Of a stretch of DNA of 13,068 nucleotides, positions 971-7,876 are shown one piece after another; positions within the stretch are counted from its first letter, which is position 1, and the number at the start of each line of letters is the position of its first letter. The notes under the pieces were generated by a model, which did not search any database, was not told the DNA's origin, and worked only from the letters and a program-made list of their open reading frames with translations. The DNA is from Candidatus Thorarchaeota archaeon (GTDB lineage: Archaea > Asgardarchaeota > Thorarchaeia > Thorarchaeales > Thorarchaeaceae). The stretch is from positions 1 through 13,068 of the forward strand of contig PRDH01000045.1 in the NCBI GenBank assembly GCA_003345545.1. Reading direction: 5' to 3'. A program made the translations under genes and the position numbers.

Positions 971-1007
971 GTGGAATTAACAATAGTGCACTCGCTTAAG
1001 GCAGGTG

Positions 1008-1259
1008 ATGTCGGTGTCAGAAGTAAAACCAGATGAAACTCTGGACTGTGTGGGGCTCTTTTGTCCTCAACCACTCTTCCAGACAAAGCAAGCGATTGAG
1101 AGTATCAAGCCGGGCCAAGTCCTCGAAGTCCTCGCAGATGATCCAGCTGCAGAGGAAGACATCAAGAGATTCTGCAGGAGAACCGGCCACGAACTCATCA
1201 GTATTCGTAGACTCCCAGATGGAGTCCAGAGAATACTCGTGCGACGAAAGAAAGGGTAA
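1008..1259 (+). CDS. tusA: TusA/SirA-family sulfur carrier protein
   Basis: About 83 aa; LDCVGLFCPQP (CPxP persulfide motif), GQVLEVLADDPAAEEDI. Start could be GTG 1005, ATG 1008 or GTG 1014; the last follows an AGGTGA SD. Confidence 0.93.
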   Translation: MSVSEVKPDETLDCVGLFCPQPLFQTKQAIESIKPGQVLEVLADDPAAEEDIKRFCRRTGHELISIRRLPDGVQRILVRRKKG

Positions 1260-1260
1260 G

Positions 1261-1282
1261 CAGGGTTTTTCGAACAACCCTG
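1261..1282 (+). promoter_or_regulatory. Intergenic inverted repeat/hairpin between tusA and iscS
   Basis: CAGGGTT-(TTTCGAAC)-AACCCTG, a perfect 7-bp stem right after the tusA stop. Confidence 0.55.
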
Positions 1283-1299
1283 TCTGAGGTTGGGGTCAC

Positions 1300-2463
1300 A
1301 TGAAGCAGGTGTATCTTGATTACCAGAGCGCAAAACCGGTAGACCCTCGTGTGGTCGAGGGTATGTTCCCATACTTCAATGAGAAGTATGGAAATCCATC
1401 AGCACTACACAGTATCGGAGATGAAGGAACAGAGGCGCTCGAAGAAAGCAGGGGAAAGATAGCACAATTCATCAATGCAGATGAAGATGAAATAATCTTC
1501 ACCTCGGGCGCCACCGAAGCAATCAATATGGGAATCATTGGGTATGCTCTCAGGAACCAAAAAAAAGGCAACCATATTATCATCTCAGAGGTTGAACACA
1601 TCTCGATACATAACATCGCCAAGCATCTTGAACGCTCTGGATTCGAGGTGTCAAGGGTTCCAGTAGATCAGTACGGTCAGGTGAATATAAGAAAGCTTGA
1701 GCAGAGGATTACTGACAAGACGATTCTCATCTCGGTGGGCTATGCGAGTAACGAGATAGGGACCATTCAACCTATTCGAGAGATAGGCAAACTCGCAGAG
1801 GATAGAGGGATTGCGTTTCACTCAGATGCTGTGGCTGCCGAGGGTCTGATTCCCATTGACGTGAAGCGCGACGGTGTCCATCTGATGGCGCTCTCTTCAA
1901 ATGATCTCTATGGTCCGAAAGGTGTTGGCGTTCTGTACATGCGAAAGAAATACAGAATCAATCCCATCATCATTGGCGGCGGACAGGAACAGGGACTTAG
2001 GTCCGGGAGCGAAGATGTGCCCGGAATCGTGGGCATGAAGATTGCAGCTGAAATCATGAGGAAAGAGATGCCCAAAGAGGTGAAACGCTTCGCAGCGTAC
2101 CGCGACAGAATGATAAAACATATTCTTCAGGAGGTCCCTGACAGTCATCTCAATGGTCATCCAACTGAGCGCCTTGCAAGCAACACGCATGTCAGATTCG
2201 ATGGAGTTGAAGGAGAATCAATTCTCCTGTCTTTCAAGGACAGGGGTATAGCAATCTCTACGGGCTCAGCATGCACGTCGAAGACACTCGAGCCCTCTCA
2301 TACCCTCATCGCAACAGGTCTTGTGCATGAGGAGGCACATGGCTCATTACAGATTACCACTGGAAGGTTCAATACCGATCTAGACATAGATAGCGTTCTT
2401 GAGGCAGTGCCAGAAATAATCGCACGGCTTCGAAGGCTATCTCCAATTTACAAACCTAAGTAG
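1300..2463 (+). CDS. iscS: IscS/NifS-family cysteine desulfurase homologue (class V PLP fold), atypical Lys-to-Asp variant
   Basis: 387 aa; VYLDYQS, YGNPSALH, IFTSGATEA, EHIS, SNEIGTIQP, HSDAV, GGGQE..LRSGS, STGSACTS (Cys325). The PLP-lysine motif reads SSNDLYGPKG (Asp202). Confidence 0.95.
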   Translation: MKQVYLDYQSAKPVDPRVVEGMFPYFNEKYGNPSALHSIGDEGTEALEESRGKIAQFINADEDEIIFTSGATEAINMGIIGYALRNQKKGNHIIISEVEHISIHNIAKHLERSGFEVSRVPVDQYGQVNIRKLEQRITDKTILISVGYASNEIGTIQPIREIGKLAEDRGIAFHSDAVAAEGLIPIDVKRDGVHLMALSSNDLYGPKGVGVLYMRKKYRINPIIIGGGQEQGLRSGSEDVPGIVGMKIAAEIMRKEMPKEVKRFAAYRDRMIKHILQEVPDSHLNGHPTERLASNTHVRFDGVEGESILLSFKDRGIAISTGSACTSKTLEPSHTLIATGLVHEEAHGSLQITTGRFNTDLDIDSVLEAVPEIIARLRRLSPIYKPK

Positions 2464-2475
2464 GAGATGAAATAG

Positions 2476-3255
2476 ATGAAATCAACAAAGTACAGCGAGA
2501 AGGTTCTGGATCACTTTCGGAATCCAAGGAATGTAGGAACGCTTGAAGGCCCTGATGTTGCTGTCGGAAAGGTTGGCAATCCCACATGTGGAGACATCAT
2601 GGAGGTCTTCATCCGTATTGATGGCGACAAGATTACAGACGCCAAGTTCAGAACCTTTGGGTGCGGCTCAGCCATTGCAACTACGAGCATGACGACTGAG
2701 ATGGTCAAAGGCATGACGCTGGACGAGGCGATGGAGCTGACCCGTCAGGACGTCGCTGATGAACTGGATGGACTTCCACCAATCAAAATGCACTGCTCGA
2801 ATCTTGCTGCAGACGCGCTTCATGTAGCAATCAAGAACTACAGAAAAGCTAGAGGAGAGGCAGTACCGGATGAACACGAGAAGGTCGAAGAAGAAATCGA
2901 ATGTCTCATTGGAAAAGATGAGTTTCTCAACAAGGGTGTCTATCTAAACGCCGACAGGCCAGAGGAGTTCGAGAACCGGAGAACCCTGGTTCTTTATTCT
3001 GGTGATAAGTCAGTCGAAACCGCAATCAAACTAACAGAGGTCTCTGGACGGGTCATTCTTCTCACGCCAGATGAGACTCTTGTTCTTAATCCAGAGCTCG
3101 CAGAGAAGCTTGCAGCCTCTACTGTCAAGGTCTTGTATCAATCAAGGCTTCTCGAGATACGCGGACATGTCGAAGTCGAAAAGGCACTCATTCGAAACCT
3201 CGATGAGAATGAGGACTACGAGCTATTCGTGGATGCTGTCATCATTCTCGAGTAA
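2476..3255 (+). CDS. iscU: IscU/NifU-N Fe-S scaffold fused to a C-terminal thioredoxin-reductase-like NAD(P)H-binding domain
   Basis: aa 1-125: YSEKVLDHFRNPRNVG, GNPTCGD (C38, D40), FGCGSA (C63), LPPIKMHC (H106, C107). aa ~141-259 form an extra alpha/beta domain. SD AGGAGA upstream, 12 bp after the iscS stop. Confidence 0.93.
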   Translation: MKSTKYSEKVLDHFRNPRNVGTLEGPDVAVGKVGNPTCGDIMEVFIRIDGDKITDAKFRTFGCGSAIATTSMTTEMVKGMTLDEAMELTRQDVADELDGLPPIKMHCSNLAADALHVAIKNYRKARGEAVPDEHEKVEEEIECLIGKDEFLNKGVYLNADRPEEFENRRTLVLYSGDKSVETAIKLTEVSGRVILLTPDETLVLNPELAEKLAASTVKVLYQSRLLEIRGHVEVEKALIRNLDENEDYELFVDAVIILE

Positions 3256-3303: not shown

Positions 3304-3765
3304 ATGTTAGAGATCAGACCAACAGCACATGCAGACATCGACAGTCTGAAGCAGATGTATGTATCTGAAGTGGAGGACCATGCAGAACGTGCTGAAGCCT
3401 TCGCAGAACAACTGACCACGAAATTCAGGACATTGCTGGCCCTGCACGACGGGCGTCTGTGTGGAACGCTCTCCTGGGACACTAGAGGGGGGTACGACGA
3501 TGGTGTCGTGGAGCTTGTTGGTCTTGGTGTCAGCTCAGCATATCAGAGAAGGGGTATAGCGACCAAGCTTGTTGAGAGGATGATCGTAGACGCTTCGCAG
3601 TTCTATTCTGATAGTGGCTACGCACTCAGAACCATCATCTTGTTTATGGAGAGAAAGAACGAACGTGCAAGGAAGTTCTATTCCCAAACTGGATTCTCAG
3701 AGGTTGCCAAGATACCTCGTCTCTATCCTCACGATGACGCAGTAATCTGGGTGCGTCATCTGTAG
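3304..3765 (+). CDS. GNAT-family N-acetyltransferase
   Basis: 153 aa; IRP start, acetyl-CoA motif LGVSSAYQRRGIATKL, NERARKFYSQTGF. Confidence 0.9.
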   Translation: MLEIRPTAHADIDSLKQMYVSEVEDHAERAEAFAEQLTTKFRTLLALHDGRLCGTLSWDTRGGYDDGVVELVGLGVSSAYQRRGIATKLVERMIVDASQFYSDSGYALRTIILFMERKNERARKFYSQTGFSEVAKIPRLYPHDDAVIWVRHL

Positions 3766-3825
3766 ATTACAATGTATTGGCCACATGATAGAGCCATCAA
3801 TAAGCAAAGAAGAAGGATTCTACTC

Positions 3826-4509
3826 ATGGAGAACGGAGGCGGCATCGGGACACTGCAGGAACGGTCACTCCACGCCGCACTTAAACAGCTCTACGAGGGC
3901 TCTGGAGCTCAGGCAGAAGTGGCAATAGATGGGTATTTTGTCGATGTGGTCAGAGATGGTCTTTTCATAGAGATTCAGACAAGGAACTTCGCGGCAATCA
4001 AAGACAAGCTCTTTGCACTCATGAAGAATCACGCAATAAGACTCGTGTATCCAATAGCAGTCGAGAAGTGGATTGTTCGCCAGAGCCCCGATGGCGAGAG
4101 TGAGCTGAGTAGAAGGCGCTCTCCAAGACGATTAGGATATGCCGACGTTTTTGGAGAACTTGTGAGTATTCCAACCTTCTTCCTTCACAAGAACTTCTCT
4201 CTTGAAGTCATCCTTATCTACGAGGAAGAGATACGAAGACAGGATGACAAGGGGAGCTGGAGAAGAAAGGGTTGGAGTAGTGTAGATCGAAGGCTTCTTG
4301 ATGTGATAGATCGACATCTGTACAGACAACCTTCTGACTTTCTCCACTTCATTCCAGACACCCTGCACAGACCCTTCACAACAAGTGAACTCGCCGAAGC
4401 ATCAGGAATCTCCAGACGAATAGCTCAGAAGATGGCATATTGCCTACGGAAAATGGAAGTGTTGCATGTTGTCGGAAAAGAGAGGAATGCACTGCTTCTT
4501 ACAACATGA
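3826..4509 (+). CDS. Conserved hypothetical protein, putative PD-(D/E)XK-superfamily nuclease with C-terminal winged helix
   Basis: Start at ATG 3826 preferred over 3772. IGTLQERSLHAALK, VDVVRDGLFIEIQT (D...ExQ), C-terminal FTTSELAEASGISRRIAQKMAYCLRKM HTH. Confidence 0.7.
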   Translation: MENGGGIGTLQERSLHAALKQLYEGSGAQAEVAIDGYFVDVVRDGLFIEIQTRNFAAIKDKLFALMKNHAIRLVYPIAVEKWIVRQSPDGESELSRRRSPRRLGYADVFGELVSIPTFFLHKNFSLEVILIYEEEIRRQDDKGSWRRKGWSSVDRRLLDVIDRHLYRQPSDFLHFIPDTLHRPFTTSELAEASGISRRIAQKMAYCLRKMEVLHVVGKERNALLLTT

Positions 4510-4641
4510 TGCGGCATGGTATTTACTCTATTGACAATCCTTATTATCACCCTCGATACAGATTAGAGGGAGCTCTGTAAGCTGGCAAGTGGTGATTGTG
4601 ACACTGCCTACTTACGTATGCGCACAGTACCGGTGATCAGA

Positions 4642-4926
4642 ATGAGTCTGCCAATCAATCTCACAAAGAGCACTTTGATAGTGCTGGACAAGTTGGCAAA
4701 GGATGGTCCAATGTGTCCTCAGGAGATTGCTGACCGCAGCGGACTCGCCATGAGGACAGTCACGCTTGCTCTCAAGACTCTACAGTCTGGCAATTTCTGC
4801 AGAAAGGTTCCGAATCTCAGGGACATGAGAAAGCCTCTCTATCATGCAGACTATGAGAGGATTCTGGAACTCCAGAGAAACCATGAGATTTGGAGAAGCC
4901 TAGCGAACCTTCGGGTTACAAGATAG
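4642..4926 (+). CDS. Small winged helix-turn-helix (MarR/ArsR-like) transcriptional regulator
   Basis: ATG 4642 preceded by GGTGA SD; GPMCPQEIADRSGLAMRTVTLALKTL HTH and wing PNLRDMRKPLY. Confidence 0.8.
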   Translation: MSLPINLTKSTLIVLDKLAKDGPMCPQEIADRSGLAMRTVTLALKTLQSGNFCRKVPNLRDMRKPLYHADYERILELQRNHEIWRSLANLRVTR

Positions 4927-4990: not shown

Positions 4991-5326
4991 TCAATCGGAG
5001 AAACAGCCTCTAAGAACAGCATGCATCACAGCTCCTCGGACCGCGTCCATGTCAGGTAATCCGGTCAGTACCTCTTGACAGATTCTCATCGCCGGCAGAC
5101 CGACTGGCAACGGATCGATGCCGCCATCATCATCGCTGGTGATATTCACCTTGCGAACAACATCTGGCGATATTCCGAAATCAGTAATGACAGAGTACAG
5201 AATCTCAAGAGCAGCATCACACAGAATGCAGTGTTCACTGCTGTAGTGAGTGACGCAGCTGCATCTGCCGCAGTCGCATCTTCTCTCCTGAATCCCGAGA
5301 ATTGCTGTCTGAGTCCGTATGGTCAT
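4991..5326 (-). CDS. Small thioredoxin/glutaredoxin-like protein with Cys-rich N-terminal extension
   Basis: VTHYSSEHCILC (strand followed by CxxC), VRKVNI, GLPAMRI (cis-Pro loop), LTGLP plus C-terminal helix. TATA-like TTATATT about 31 bp upstream (5357-5363, minus strand). Confidence 0.7.
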   Translation of the reverse strand: MTIRTQTAILGIQERRCDCGRCSCVTHYSSEHCILCDAALEILYSVITDFGISPDVVRKVNITSDDDGGIDPLPVGLPAMRICQEVLTGLPDMDAVRGAVMHAVLRGCFSD

Positions 5327-5535: not shown

Positions 5536-6711
5536 TCACCCTACCACATCAAGAGCAGTCATCAGATCGTCGAGTAGGTCTGCCGCATCTTCAATTCCGA
5601 CTGAGAGCCGAACAGTCGAGTTGCAGATTCCTGCTTCTTTGAGCATGCCTTCTGGAATCCCATAGTGTGTTGTCAGAGCGGGAATGCTTGCTAGGCTCTC
5701 CACTCCGCCAAGTGAAACAGCATTCAGGAATATGTCAAGAGAATCTACGAACCTACGAGTACCTATCAAATCAGTATCGAGGTCGACTGAGAGCATGCCT
5801 CCAAAGCTGTCCATCTGTTGCCTTGCAACATCATACTGTGGGTGACTTGGAAGACCGGGATAGTGAACTCGCTTGATTCGATTATCGCGGGAGAGTCTTT
5901 CAGCCAAGAACTCTGCATTGGAGTTATGTCGTTCCATTCTGACGCTGAGCGTCTTGATACCACGGTCCAGCAAGAATGATGCGAACGGATCCATAGTTCC
6001 TCCAAGAAGCTTCGCTGCGCTCCGAACTTTCGCCACTGTTTCCTTTGAACCAGAGATAGTGCCAGCAATTATGTCGCTGTGGCCGCCCAAGTACTTGGTA
6101 GCGCTATGCATCACAAGGTCCACGCCAAGCAGGTGGGGGCGCTGATTGATTGGCGACCCGAAGGTGCTATCAATCATACTGATTGTCCCTGTCGCTCGGG
6201 CAGCATCAGCCACTTTCTTGATATCAACAATCTTCAGGGTTGGATTCGTTGGGGTCTCGAAGAAACAGAGTCTGTACTTGCCTCTAGAGTCAGACAGTCT
6301 GTCAGCAACTTCATTGGTATCTGCATAATCGACCTGAATTCCATTCTGGGGCAGTATCTCGTTGAAGAAATGAAGCGTACCACCATAGATAGAATCGCTC
6401 GAAAGGATTCTCTCGCCGCCTTTCACAAGACCCAGCACTGCAGATGTAATCGCAGCCATCCCAGATGCCACCACATGAGTGTCTTCTGTACCCTCAAGGG
6501 AACTGATCTTCTCTTCGACGCTCTTGGTAGTAGGATTGCTCCACCGTGTATACACATGATCACCTGTCTTCCCTTGTACAGAGTCCAACATGTGCTGTTG
6601 GTCCTCGAAAACGAAAGTAGATGTCTGCACGATGGGGACTACTACGGGGCCCGATGTCTGTGAACGCGCCCCTTGAACACAGAGAGTGGAAGGCTTTCTT
6701 GTCTTGACCAT
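5536..6711 (-). CDS. PLP-dependent trans-sulfuration enzyme (cystathionine gamma-lyase/gamma-synthase / methionine gamma-lyase family)
   Basis: YTRWSNPT, SGMAAI, YGGT, ETPTNPTL, DSTF, HSATKYLGGHSD (PLP Lys intact), SLGGVESL, RLSVGIED. ATG 6711 follows a GGAGTGA SD and is preferred over TTG 6738. Confidence 0.95.
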   Translation of the reverse strand: MVKTRKPSTLCVQGARSQTSGPVVVPIVQTSTFVFEDQQHMLDSVQGKTGDHVYTRWSNPTTKSVEEKISSLEGTEDTHVVASGMAAITSAVLGLVKGGERILSSDSIYGGTLHFFNEILPQNGIQVDYADTNEVADRLSDSRGKYRLCFFETPTNPTLKIVDIKKVADAARATGTISMIDSTFGSPINQRPHLLGVDLVMHSATKYLGGHSDIIAGTISGSKETVAKVRSAAKLLGGTMDPFASFLLDRGIKTLSVRMERHNSNAEFLAERLSRDNRIKRVHYPGLPSHPQYDVARQQMDSFGGMLSVDLDTDLIGTRRFVDSLDIFLNAVSLGGVESLASIPALTTHYGIPEGMLKEAGICNSTVRLSVGIEDAADLLDDLMTALDVVG

Positions 6712-6868
6712 CTGTTTCTTCACTCCGAACAGACTCAATCGTACAAGACGAGCACACTCATCTGGAGTTTATAGATAGATGCAAATAGGCACTGCTGCAT
6801 CTTCGATGTGACTTCCGCCGCAGACTCCCCACATTATTGCAGACTGGCTAAGAAACGAATCTCCGATA

Positions 6869-7876
6869 CTATGATTGCCAGCCAGTCATTTCAATCCGGA
6901 TTACACTATCAAGAGATGCGCCACTTGCAGTGACGAGCTTGAGAGGCCATTCCGGCGGCAATAGTAGTATCTCATCAGCCCATCCAGCAATGACTATGTC
7001 GTTGTTGAAGGCAATCTCATAGGACGTGAAGTTGAGATAAGAACCAGTTTCGGACCAAACGGTGATTGTGTAATTCGTGGGAACCAGGCTATTGTTGAAG
7101 CTGTAGTGAATGTCGTTTCCACCATCCATTGATGATACAATCGTCCAGAGAGCAACACCTGCATAGAGAGTCCCGTTCAGGGTGATGCTCTTCCGATGAT
7201 GAGTACATGAACCCAGTGAGTAGTAGACATCATGTGTCATGTTCCATTCAAGTACTCCTTTCAGCTCCAAGGACCAAGGCTGCGTCCTATCGACGACTGA
7301 AATCTCTCTGATGTATTTTGCGAAAGTGTGTCCTGCAGACATGTAGTCACCATCAGGTCGCATTATGAGGCGAAGCGGACCACCGGTCTCATTTGAAATC
7401 GATTCGCCATTCTGTCTGTAGGCAAGAACCATCGTGAAGTTCTGAATTCCAATCGGTTCTGCTGTGGAGGAGTTGTATGCCTCTAATGAGCCCTCACACT
7501 CACTCACTGTGAAATATGTATCATAGCCATCACTACTCAGGATTCGAAGGCTGTAGTTTTCAGGCAAACTTCCAGTTCGTGAAAGCAGCTGTGCAAGAGG
7601 AATGCCAGTCCAATTAGAAGGATTCACAATTGTATAGGGGCTGGTACCAGTCTTGACGAATCCTGCAGAACATGTTATGCTTGGAAGGGAATACAGATCA
7701 CTCATGGTGTAGTTATCAGAAGAATCACCCACATTGATGGTGAGGACCAACTCTGTATCAATCGGTGTCTGTGGCTGCAGAAAGAAGACAACTGTCAGCG
7801 AGGCAACCGCAACTATGGCGATGATTGAAACGGCCAGTCCCGTACCTCTACTCAGACCGATAGGCATTGCGTTCAC
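6869..7876 (-). CDS. Membrane-anchored extracellular protein with two sulfite-oxidase/YedY-like (molybdopterin-binding oxidoreductase fold) domains
   Basis: N-terminal TM helix. Domain 1: WTGIPLAQLL, SSDGY, VLAYRQNG, GGPLRL, KYIREISV. Domain 2: YAGVALWTIV, IVIAGWAD, WPLKLV, VIRIEM. TATA-like TTTATGTA about 28 bp upstream. Confidence 0.7.
   Translation of the reverse strand: MNAMPIGLSRGTGLAVSIIAIVAVASLTVVFFLQPQTPIDTELVLTINVGDSSDNYTMSDLYSLPSITCSAGFVKTGTSPYTIVNPSNWTGIPLAQLLSRTGSLPENYSLRILSSDGYDTYFTVSECEGSLEAYNSSTAEPIGIQNFTMVLAYRQNGESISNETGGPLRLIMRPDGDYMSAGHTFAKYIREISVVDRTQPWSLELKGVLEWNMTHDVYYSLGSCTHHRKSITLNGTLYAGVALWTIVSSMDGGNDIHYSFNNSLVPTNYTITVWSETGSYLNFTSYEIAFNNDIVIAGWADEILLLPPEWPLKLVTASGASLDSVIRIEMTGWQS

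Follow-up and report, generated by a model that had tools for sequence, protein, structure and literature searches.

The window analyzed here, 13,068 bp long, is the whole of one contig (C45) of a 2.69-Mb metagenome-assembled genome (MAG) with a completeness of 93% and a contamination of 5.4%, and its nearest relatives carry the label Candidatus Thorarchaeota. At positions 1008-3255 of the plus strand it encodes TusA, an IscS without the lysine that binds pyridoxal phosphate (PLP), and a long IscU, in which the scaffold is followed by a domain resembling part of thioredoxin reductase (TrxR). An initial annotation of this stretch had described three co-oriented genes with gaps of 40 bp (tusA-iscS) and 12 bp (iscS-iscU). 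All these features are in place, and each of the two gaps holds a Shine-Dalgarno-like motif. Judged from their sequence, tusA, iscS, and iscU are one operon. We describe its products, then the conservation of the operon in other genomes, and finally the reading that we favor, in which TusA would bring sulfur to the other two proteins.

A sulfur carrier, a lysine-less IscS, and a two-domain IscU

The first gene encodes a member of the TusA family, with a match to PF01206 and the carrier cysteine, Cys19 (nt 1062-1064), in a Cys-Pro-x-Pro (CPxP) motif. The ADDPAAEED motif is also present. Cys19, Pro20, and Pro22 are invariant in an alignment of 19 TusA orthologs, and the nearest solved relative of the protein is the TusA of Escherichia coli (1DCJ/3LVJ, E 3e-15).

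The second gene encodes a protein with the fold of type-I desulfurases and the cysteine of their GSAC loop, and without their Schiff-base lysine (S-x-H-K). Its best solved relative is IscS2 of Archaeoglobus fulgidus (PDB 4EB5, E 4.2e-136, about 60% identity). The residues that align with the His-Lys of lysine-bearing desulfurases are N201-D202 (nt 1900-1905), in a SSND motif like that of 4EB5 (a further structure, PDB 4R5F, is an engineered D199K variant of the A. fulgidus protein). Gln183, a PLP contact, is replaced by Ala (DAVA). Cys325 (nt 2272-2274) is retained in the mobile GSAC loop, and two further residues are conserved, the stacking His100 and Asp176, the partner of the PLP nitrogen. 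These traits are not peculiar to the window, since SSN(D/E), the replacement by Ala or Ser, and the GSAC-loop cysteine are common to all 38 aligned Asgard IscS orthologs. With the SSND motif, the change of Gln183 to Ala, and membership in the SSND clade (of a tree built without A. fulgidus itself), the protein taken alone is by its sequence of a known kind, the lysine-less type of A. fulgidus, to which the initial annotation had already assigned it. The A. fulgidus IscS was reported to lack cysteine desulfurase activity and to pair with IscU, its loop cysteine being the fourth ligand of a [2Fe-2S] cluster, and IscS1 of Methanosarcina acetivorans is likewise without the lysine (PMC7585200, PMC8918507). 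By analogy with the A. fulgidus homolog, we infer that the IscS of the window is inactive as a cysteine desulfurase.

The third gene encodes an IscU of 259 residues, in which the match to NifU_N is confined to residues 5-126. The cluster ligands Cys38, Cys63, and Cys107, together with Asp40 and His106, are intact, and all are invariant in 26 sequences. The scaffold is close to the IscU of Methanothrix (E 3.9e-53 with 7C8M; 65% identity in the Foldseek alignment with 7C8M/7C8N). The long IscU is the sole NifU_N match in the genome, and since it is the single IscU-type scaffold found there, the operon is probably no spare copy.

The initial annotation had considered this IscU as fused to a TrxR-like domain, which matches of both sequence and fold over residues 142-258 bear out. 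By sequence, the match of these residues to the NADPH domain of thioredoxin reductases is a weak one (5J60, 2ZBW, and 3F8D, E 2.5e-5 to 1e-4). The AlphaFold2 model of the protein has a mean pLDDT of 85.8, with about 90 for the C-terminal domain and less than 50 for residues 134-141, in a linker whose length and sequence vary across the alignment. In this model the C-terminal domain has the NAD(P)H-domain fold of TrxR-type flavoreductases, and Foldseek places it on 3F8P with a root-mean-square deviation of 1.7 Å over 119 residues and on 2ZBW with 1.5 Å over 120 residues.

The motifs of the parent enzymes are missing from this domain: it has LNAD in place of CxxC, YSGDKS in place of GxGxxA, and TPD in place of HRR, and no cysteine in it is conserved across the alignment. 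An FAD domain is absent as well, as IscU stops at the edge of its NADPH domain, with no Pyr_redox_2 match in the family profile search. The conserved positions are mostly those common to the parent fold, plus an acidic stretch rich in Asp and Glu, and the protein ends with such a stretch (DENEDYELFVD). According to the initial annotation, the domain could supply electrons in place of a ferredoxin, which it did not see in the window. The second part is correct, since ferredoxin families gave no match among the open reading frames (ORFs) of the window in the profile search. The first must be abandoned: having no FAD domain, nucleotide motifs, or redox cysteines, the domain is predicted to be incapable of the usual binding of NAD(P)H or flavin, so that this protein would not itself donate electrons.

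The fusion is no assembly artifact, because the IscU of the window has 72-97% identity with over 120 protein clusters, all of 258-261 aa. When the C-terminal domain was searched in isolation among 1.84 billion cluster representatives, it gave 89 matches, to long IscU proteins or their fragments and then to TrxR-like enzymes. Long IscU of this truncated type (called at E <=5e-23, in frames of 257-300 aa) occurs in 80 of the 201 sampled Asgard genomes, chiefly in two families (f1 and f9). In another Asgard family (f19), IscU is fused to a complete TrxR-like flavoprotein, giving proteins of about 450 aa that have intact FAD and NADPH motifs, have no CxxC, and in this resemble the TrxR-type ferredoxin-NADP reductases. 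The same kind of whole fusion is found in a Methanosarcinales MAG, and in both cases it occupies the same kind of operon (examples are L053:6010-7356 and L074:4383-5747). In a tree of NAD(P)H domains, the truncated ones form one clade with a support of 100 and a long stem. Their best sequence matches outside the truncated type are the whole fusions, and the tree is compatible with a descent from these or with another origin. To judge from the motifs, only the relatives with a whole flavoprotein fused could supply electrons. The family with whole fusions also shows some variation between iscS and the fusion gene. One complete genome has there a gene for a 136-aa protein without a Pfam family (L053:5364-5774, plus strand), and another genome (L055) has about 3 kb between the two genes.

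The features of the operon are listed in Table 1. We also considered and dropped a stem-loop at 1260-1283, within the 40 bp that separate tusA from iscS, since its folding is no better than that of shuffled sequence (z = -0.05).

Table 1. Coordinates of the genes, protein domains, and putative signals of the operon in the window
Feature	Positions	Strand	Remarks
Possible archaeal TATA box, TTTATAA	964-970	+	about 40 bp 5' of the tusA start; from sequence alone
Shine-Dalgarno-like AGGTGA	1000-1005	+	ahead of tusA; from sequence alone
tusA, 83 aa	1008-1259	+	PF01206, E 1.7e-25
iscS without PLP lysine, type-I class-V aminotransferase fold	1300-2463	+	PF00266, E 4.9e-73
iscU, scaffold domain, residues 1-130	2476-2865	+	NifU_N, E 2.7e-48
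IscU interdomain linker, predicted disordered	2866-2895	+	AlphaFold2 pLDDT; variable in alignment
IscU C-terminal domain, residues 141-259, and stop codon	2896-3255	+	TrxR-like NAD(P)H-domain fold

Conservation of the operon and its association with lysine loss

The Asgard loci that have a long iscU and enough flanking sequence to be judged represent four or more families, and all 30 of them have tusA upstream of iscS. Gene order kept in all of them is far beyond chance. In the initial annotation, an order not conserved in relatives would have refuted the proposal; the order found supports the three genes as a conserved functional unit. In 21 of these 30 loci, a gene encoding a DsrE-family protein of 120 aa (PF02635) with a conserved cysteine stands between tusA and iscS. 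The operon of the window is without dsrE, with just the 40 bp between its first two genes. Within the genus of the window, dsrE was kept in some genomes and is gone in others, among them that of the window and the two most closely related to it.

We then surveyed bacteria and archaea, taking one genome per species and the best 80 loci by similarity to the long IscU, aligned over the whole protein. The adjacent IscS was classed by alignment, and 72 of the loci were scorable. In this sample, an adjacent tusA was present in 26 of the 27 iscS-iscU loci where IscS is lysine-less, the sole exception being cut by the end of a contig, and in none of the 45 where IscS has the lysine. Hence, the co-occurrence of tusA with iscS of the SSND type, for which the initial annotation had suggested a survey of genomes, is very marked. 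The lysine-less loci of Archaea belong to Asgard, Bathyarchaeia, Thermoplasmatota, Methanomicrobia, Methanotrichaceae, and Methanomethyliaceae. Those of Bacteria belong to Actinomycetota, Spirochaetota, and Thermodesulfobacteriota, and their sequences nest within the Asgard IscS sequences.

In the IscS tree, the SSND type forms one clade (support of 99) that includes the protein of the window, and the SSND loss of the lysine therefore amounts in essence to a single ancient event. Independently, the lysine was lost a second time, in a Nitrospirota MAG, with His-Gln, and in an unclassified bacterium, with His-Arg. Both loci have an adjacent tusA, upstream of iscS in one and downstream in the other. 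The presence of tusA beside both of two independent losses is suggestive.

The fused domain of IscU follows this association in part. Among the 72 loci, long IscU is confined to the SSND clade, but many lysine-less operons have a short IscU. The extra domain is thus an add-on to a core of TusA, lysine-less IscS, and IscU, which is defined without it.

Bacterial copies of the full set of genes, i.e., tusA, lysine-less iscS, and long iscU, with or without dsrE, were found in Spirochaetota, Actinomycetota, Thermodesulfobacteriota, and an unclassified MAG (L059, L061, L063, L066, L067, L069, and L072). Since these copies nest inside the Asgard IscS clade, the tree suggests that the whole module was spread by lateral transfer between Asgard archaea and anaerobic bacterial phyla. 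An operon common to Asgard archaea and several such phyla points to the lateral spread of a working unit.

Behind iscU, the window has a gene for a GNAT acetyltransferase (3304-3765), directly downstream, then one for a 245-aa protein (3772-4509), whose likeness to DUF8091 comes from language-model features alone, and one for a MarR-family regulator (4618-4926). The first two are limited, in this position, to the Thorarchaeia-like family, and the MarR homolog recurs 1-3 kb downstream in more distant members of that family. The minus strand has a 111-aa Cys-rich ORF without Pfam match (4991-5326), which overlaps a plus-strand ORF of 132 aa, a PLP enzyme of Cys/Met metabolism (5536-6738, Cys_Met_Meta_PP), and a protein with a molybdopterin oxidoreductase domain (6869-7876).

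Origin and direction of the sulfur

The explanation we favor, with about even confidence, is that the operon encodes a variant of the minimal iron-sulfur cluster (ISC) system, hereafter MIS, of the type of A. fulgidus IscS2-IscU, fed by a TusA relay and with a fused domain that is structural or serves for docking. A dedicated TusA would replace the lost PLP chemistry, passing sulfane sulfur to Cys325 of IscS, to IscU, or to both. We infer this direction because the loss of the lysine and the adjacency of tusA are associated. In most relatives, the DsrE-type carrier encoded between tusA and iscS would load TusA. In the genome of the window, the candidates for the upstream donor are a DsrE-family protein on another contig (C76), a SufS-like desulfurase (C7), or polysulfide or sulfide. 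More generally, the sulfur might originate from cysteine, through another enzyme and then TusA, or from sulfide, polysulfide, or thiosulfate, delivered by carriers of the DsrE type. The C-terminal domain of IscU would descend from a TrxR-type flavoreductase, being its NAD(P)H domain without the cofactor, most likely turned into a structural or docking module.

Several points weigh against this explanation. Adjacency fits TusA as an acceptor equally well. The association covers just two independent losses of the lysine. The DsrE carrier is dispensable, since several operons, that of the window included, have lost its gene. Lysine-bearing desulfurase candidates are present in the genome, as are canonical iscS genes in genomes of family f9. 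A co-fold of IscS, long IscU, and TusA, with their own alignments and TusA as the scored partner, gave a score of 0.00 in a run without controls, which speaks neither for nor against the scheme.

The genes that could provide sulfur elsewhere in the genome deserve some attention. A SufS-like gene at C7 has both its lysine and its cysteine intact, and a 743-aa frame at C81:28237-30465 (plus strand, L002) joins a lysine-bearing desulfurase of the NifS/IscS type (AGHK, with the Cys loop) to a C-terminal half of the SelD/AIR-synthase type, the SelD assignment being made by eye from the translation. A SufB-like SMS gene is also present. A second TusA, 31% identical to that of the operon, is encoded at C76:63025-64245 (L011, L052) beside the DsrE-family gene mentioned above, whose product is a distant relative (32% identity). 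This second tusA is divergent from genes of DUF5400 and of the DsrE family, and a gene for a PAS histidine kinase adjoins. The genome has another class-V gene whose product, inspected by eye, seems to be without the PLP lysine, with SANI for S-x-H-K and the C-terminal cysteine kept (C78:49477-50697, minus strand, L004; PF00266, 214 bits). It is SufS-like, not IscS-like. Outside the family of the window, all 5 genomes of family f9 that were checked (L153-L157) have a second, lysine-bearing iscS besides the operon of tusA, dsrE, lysine-less iscS, and long iscU. In the one where the neighbors were examined (G147; L155, G147:C2:29024-33133), this gene adjoins a short iscU with no tusA beside it. 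The canonical pair is about 22 kb away from the operon on the same contig. These five genomes group with sequences labelled Promethearchaeota.

The initial annotation had reasoned that sulfur cannot flow in the usual way, from cysteine through IscS to TusA or IscU, and may thus run in reverse. This does not impose a route independent of cysteine, in view of the SufS-like gene and the NifS-SelD fusion in this genome and of the canonical pair in family f9. As lysine-bearing desulfurases are present, the sulfur route need not be cysteine-independent, and we rejected strict independence from cysteine as a conclusion.

A more far-reaching version of the TusA-fed scheme is less likely than not. It would be a desulfurase-independent assembly line, where DsrE passes sulfur to TusA and TusA loads Cys325 of the lysine-less IscS, and where the reductase fused to IscU, whole in some lineages, is the electron donor of MIS, of which the window retains the NAD(P)H-domain shell for docking. 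If true, it would answer both questions raised by MIS, the source of sulfur and the source of electrons.

Alternatively, the flow could keep its normal direction after an unusual loading step: sulfide or polysulfide would load Cys325, or the cluster bound to IscU, and TusA would be an acceptor that serves the thiolation of tRNA, the molybdenum cofactor, or a similar end, as in E. coli. We regard this as unlikely, even if the TusA of the window is most like that of E. coli, which takes sulfur from IscS (PDB 3LVJ), the operon persists as a unit without dsrE, and networks of sulfur transferases are said not to be strictly one-way (PMC11094781). An acceptor does not account for the finding of tusA beside iscS solely upon loss of the lysine. 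Furthermore, DsrE3-type carriers hand sulfur preferentially to TusA in vitro (PMC11094781), which, where dsrE is present, would bring sulfur to TusA from outside and not from IscS.

It is also conceivable, with a rather low probability, that cysteine is the source, and that a stand-alone active desulfurase (the SufS-like protein of C7 in Thorarchaeia, a canonical IscS elsewhere in Asgard) charges TusA, which then serves lysine-less IscS and IscU. This is a sub-case of the favored explanation with a defined donor. The SufS-like gene is found, with lysine and cysteine intact, in all 43 genomes of the window's family, and the lysine-bearing iscS genes of family f9, beside a short iscU in G147, would fit as well. 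However, the same query detected the SufS-like gene in just 2 of the 40 f9 genomes and in none of the 3 genomes of another family (f24) that carry the operon, so that there is no single shared donor, and we rejected the SufS-like gene as a universal donor of TusA. It also lacks sulfur-relay neighbors, and the co-encoded DsrE suggests an inorganic or low-molecular-weight source of sulfane sulfur.

Another improbable account is that TusA and the C-terminal domain have no role in sulfur delivery, that clusters are made from free sulfide on IscS-IscU, and that the neighboring genes are co-regulated factors of sulfur stress or regulation. MIS and SMS systems can reportedly draw on sulfide (PMC13066941, PMC12192291), and the window has many genes of sulfur metabolism with no necessary interaction, such as the Cys_Met_Meta_PP enzyme and the molybdopterin oxidoreductase. 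Yet, this does not sit well with the linkage of tusA in phyla of both Archaea and Bacteria, where the genes overlap or are separated by very short gaps, nor with the invariant carrier cysteine of TusA. Finally, that the IscS of the window is still a cysteine desulfurase, through PLP bound non-covalently or another lysine, is highly improbable in spite of the conserved class-V fold, His100, Asp176, and Cys loop, since the A. fulgidus IscS, which shares the SSND motif, was reported inactive (PMC7585200, PMC8918507), Gln183 is lost too, and many orthologs have Arg for the nearby Lys of YGPKG.

Comparison with known systems

The closest system is IscS2-IscU of A. fulgidus (4EB5, 4EB7, 4HVK; D199K variant in 4R5F), to which the window is similar in its IscS (identity of around 60%, SSND, Gln-to-Ala), in its IscU scaffold (about 59% identity, all ligands present), and in the adjacency of the two genes. 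The difference is that the A. fulgidus IscU is a chain of 153 aa without the reductase-like domain of about 115 aa. No TusA or DsrE partner of IscS2-IscU is described in openly readable papers, a comparison made by literature and not by gene neighborhood.

MIS (MisS-MisU, including IscS1-IscU1 of M. acetivorans) is described as the pairing of a cysteine desulfurase with a scaffold (PMC12192291, PMC13066941). The operon has the same two-gene core of iscS and iscU without HscAB, IscA, or ferredoxin, it coexists with a SMS (SufB-like) system in the same genome, and its IscS shares the missing lysine with M. acetivorans IscS1 (PMC7585200). It differs from MIS in having a disabled desulfurase, a built-in sulfur carrier, and a scaffold with an extra domain.

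E. coli has an active IscS as the donor to TusA, and its iscS and tusA are not neighbors. What the window has in common with this pair (3LVJ) is a TusA of one family, carrying the CPxP cysteine and the ADDPA motif, and a type-I IscS as the partner. In contrast, its IscS is predicted to be unable to make a persulfide, and tusA is fixed beside iscS. The DsrE3-TusA relays of sulfur oxidizers (sHdr, rDsr) are also similar, as they pair TusA with a DsrE-family protein, both with conserved cysteines and, in most relatives of the window, co-encoded. The Asgard relay is, however, tied to an iron-sulfur scaffold and not to a dissimilatory sulfur-oxidizing enzyme, and the window itself has no dsrE.

The C-terminal domain of IscU has the NAD(P)H-domain fold of low-Mr thioredoxin reductases and TrxR-type ferredoxin-NADP reductases (3F8P, 2ZBW, 2Q7V), with 24-29% identity. 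Unlike these, the protein has that single domain, with no FAD domain, CxxC, GxGxxA, or HRR, and it is not an enzyme of the family. By analogy, it can be likened to NifU, a three-domain scaffold (PMC13066941) in which an IscU-type scaffold is also fused to further modules. These are, in NifU, a redox-active ferredoxin-like [2Fe-2S] domain and a Nfu domain, unrelated to the module of the window.

Since the A. fulgidus structures, IscS proteins without the lysine have been a known kind, and the sulfur supply of their scaffold has long been a question. The placement of tusA beside iscS exactly upon the loss of the lysine names a candidate sulfur donor for this scaffold, and the fusions of IscU to an intact flavoreductase in relatives name a candidate source of electrons, in minimal systems whose electron donors were stated to be unknown in a 2026 review (PMC13066941). 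We found nothing in openly readable papers, a scope outside which lies the discovery paper of MIS, on a link of TusA or DsrE to a lysine-less IscS or on a fusion of IscU to a reductase. The conserved arrangement of tusA, a dead desulfurase, and a scaffold with a vestigial reductase domain is thus apparently undescribed. Taken as a whole, the operon represents a variant of the minimal ISC system already known: its IscS is disabled and, together with the scaffold, permanently tied to a relay of TusA and, usually, DsrE.

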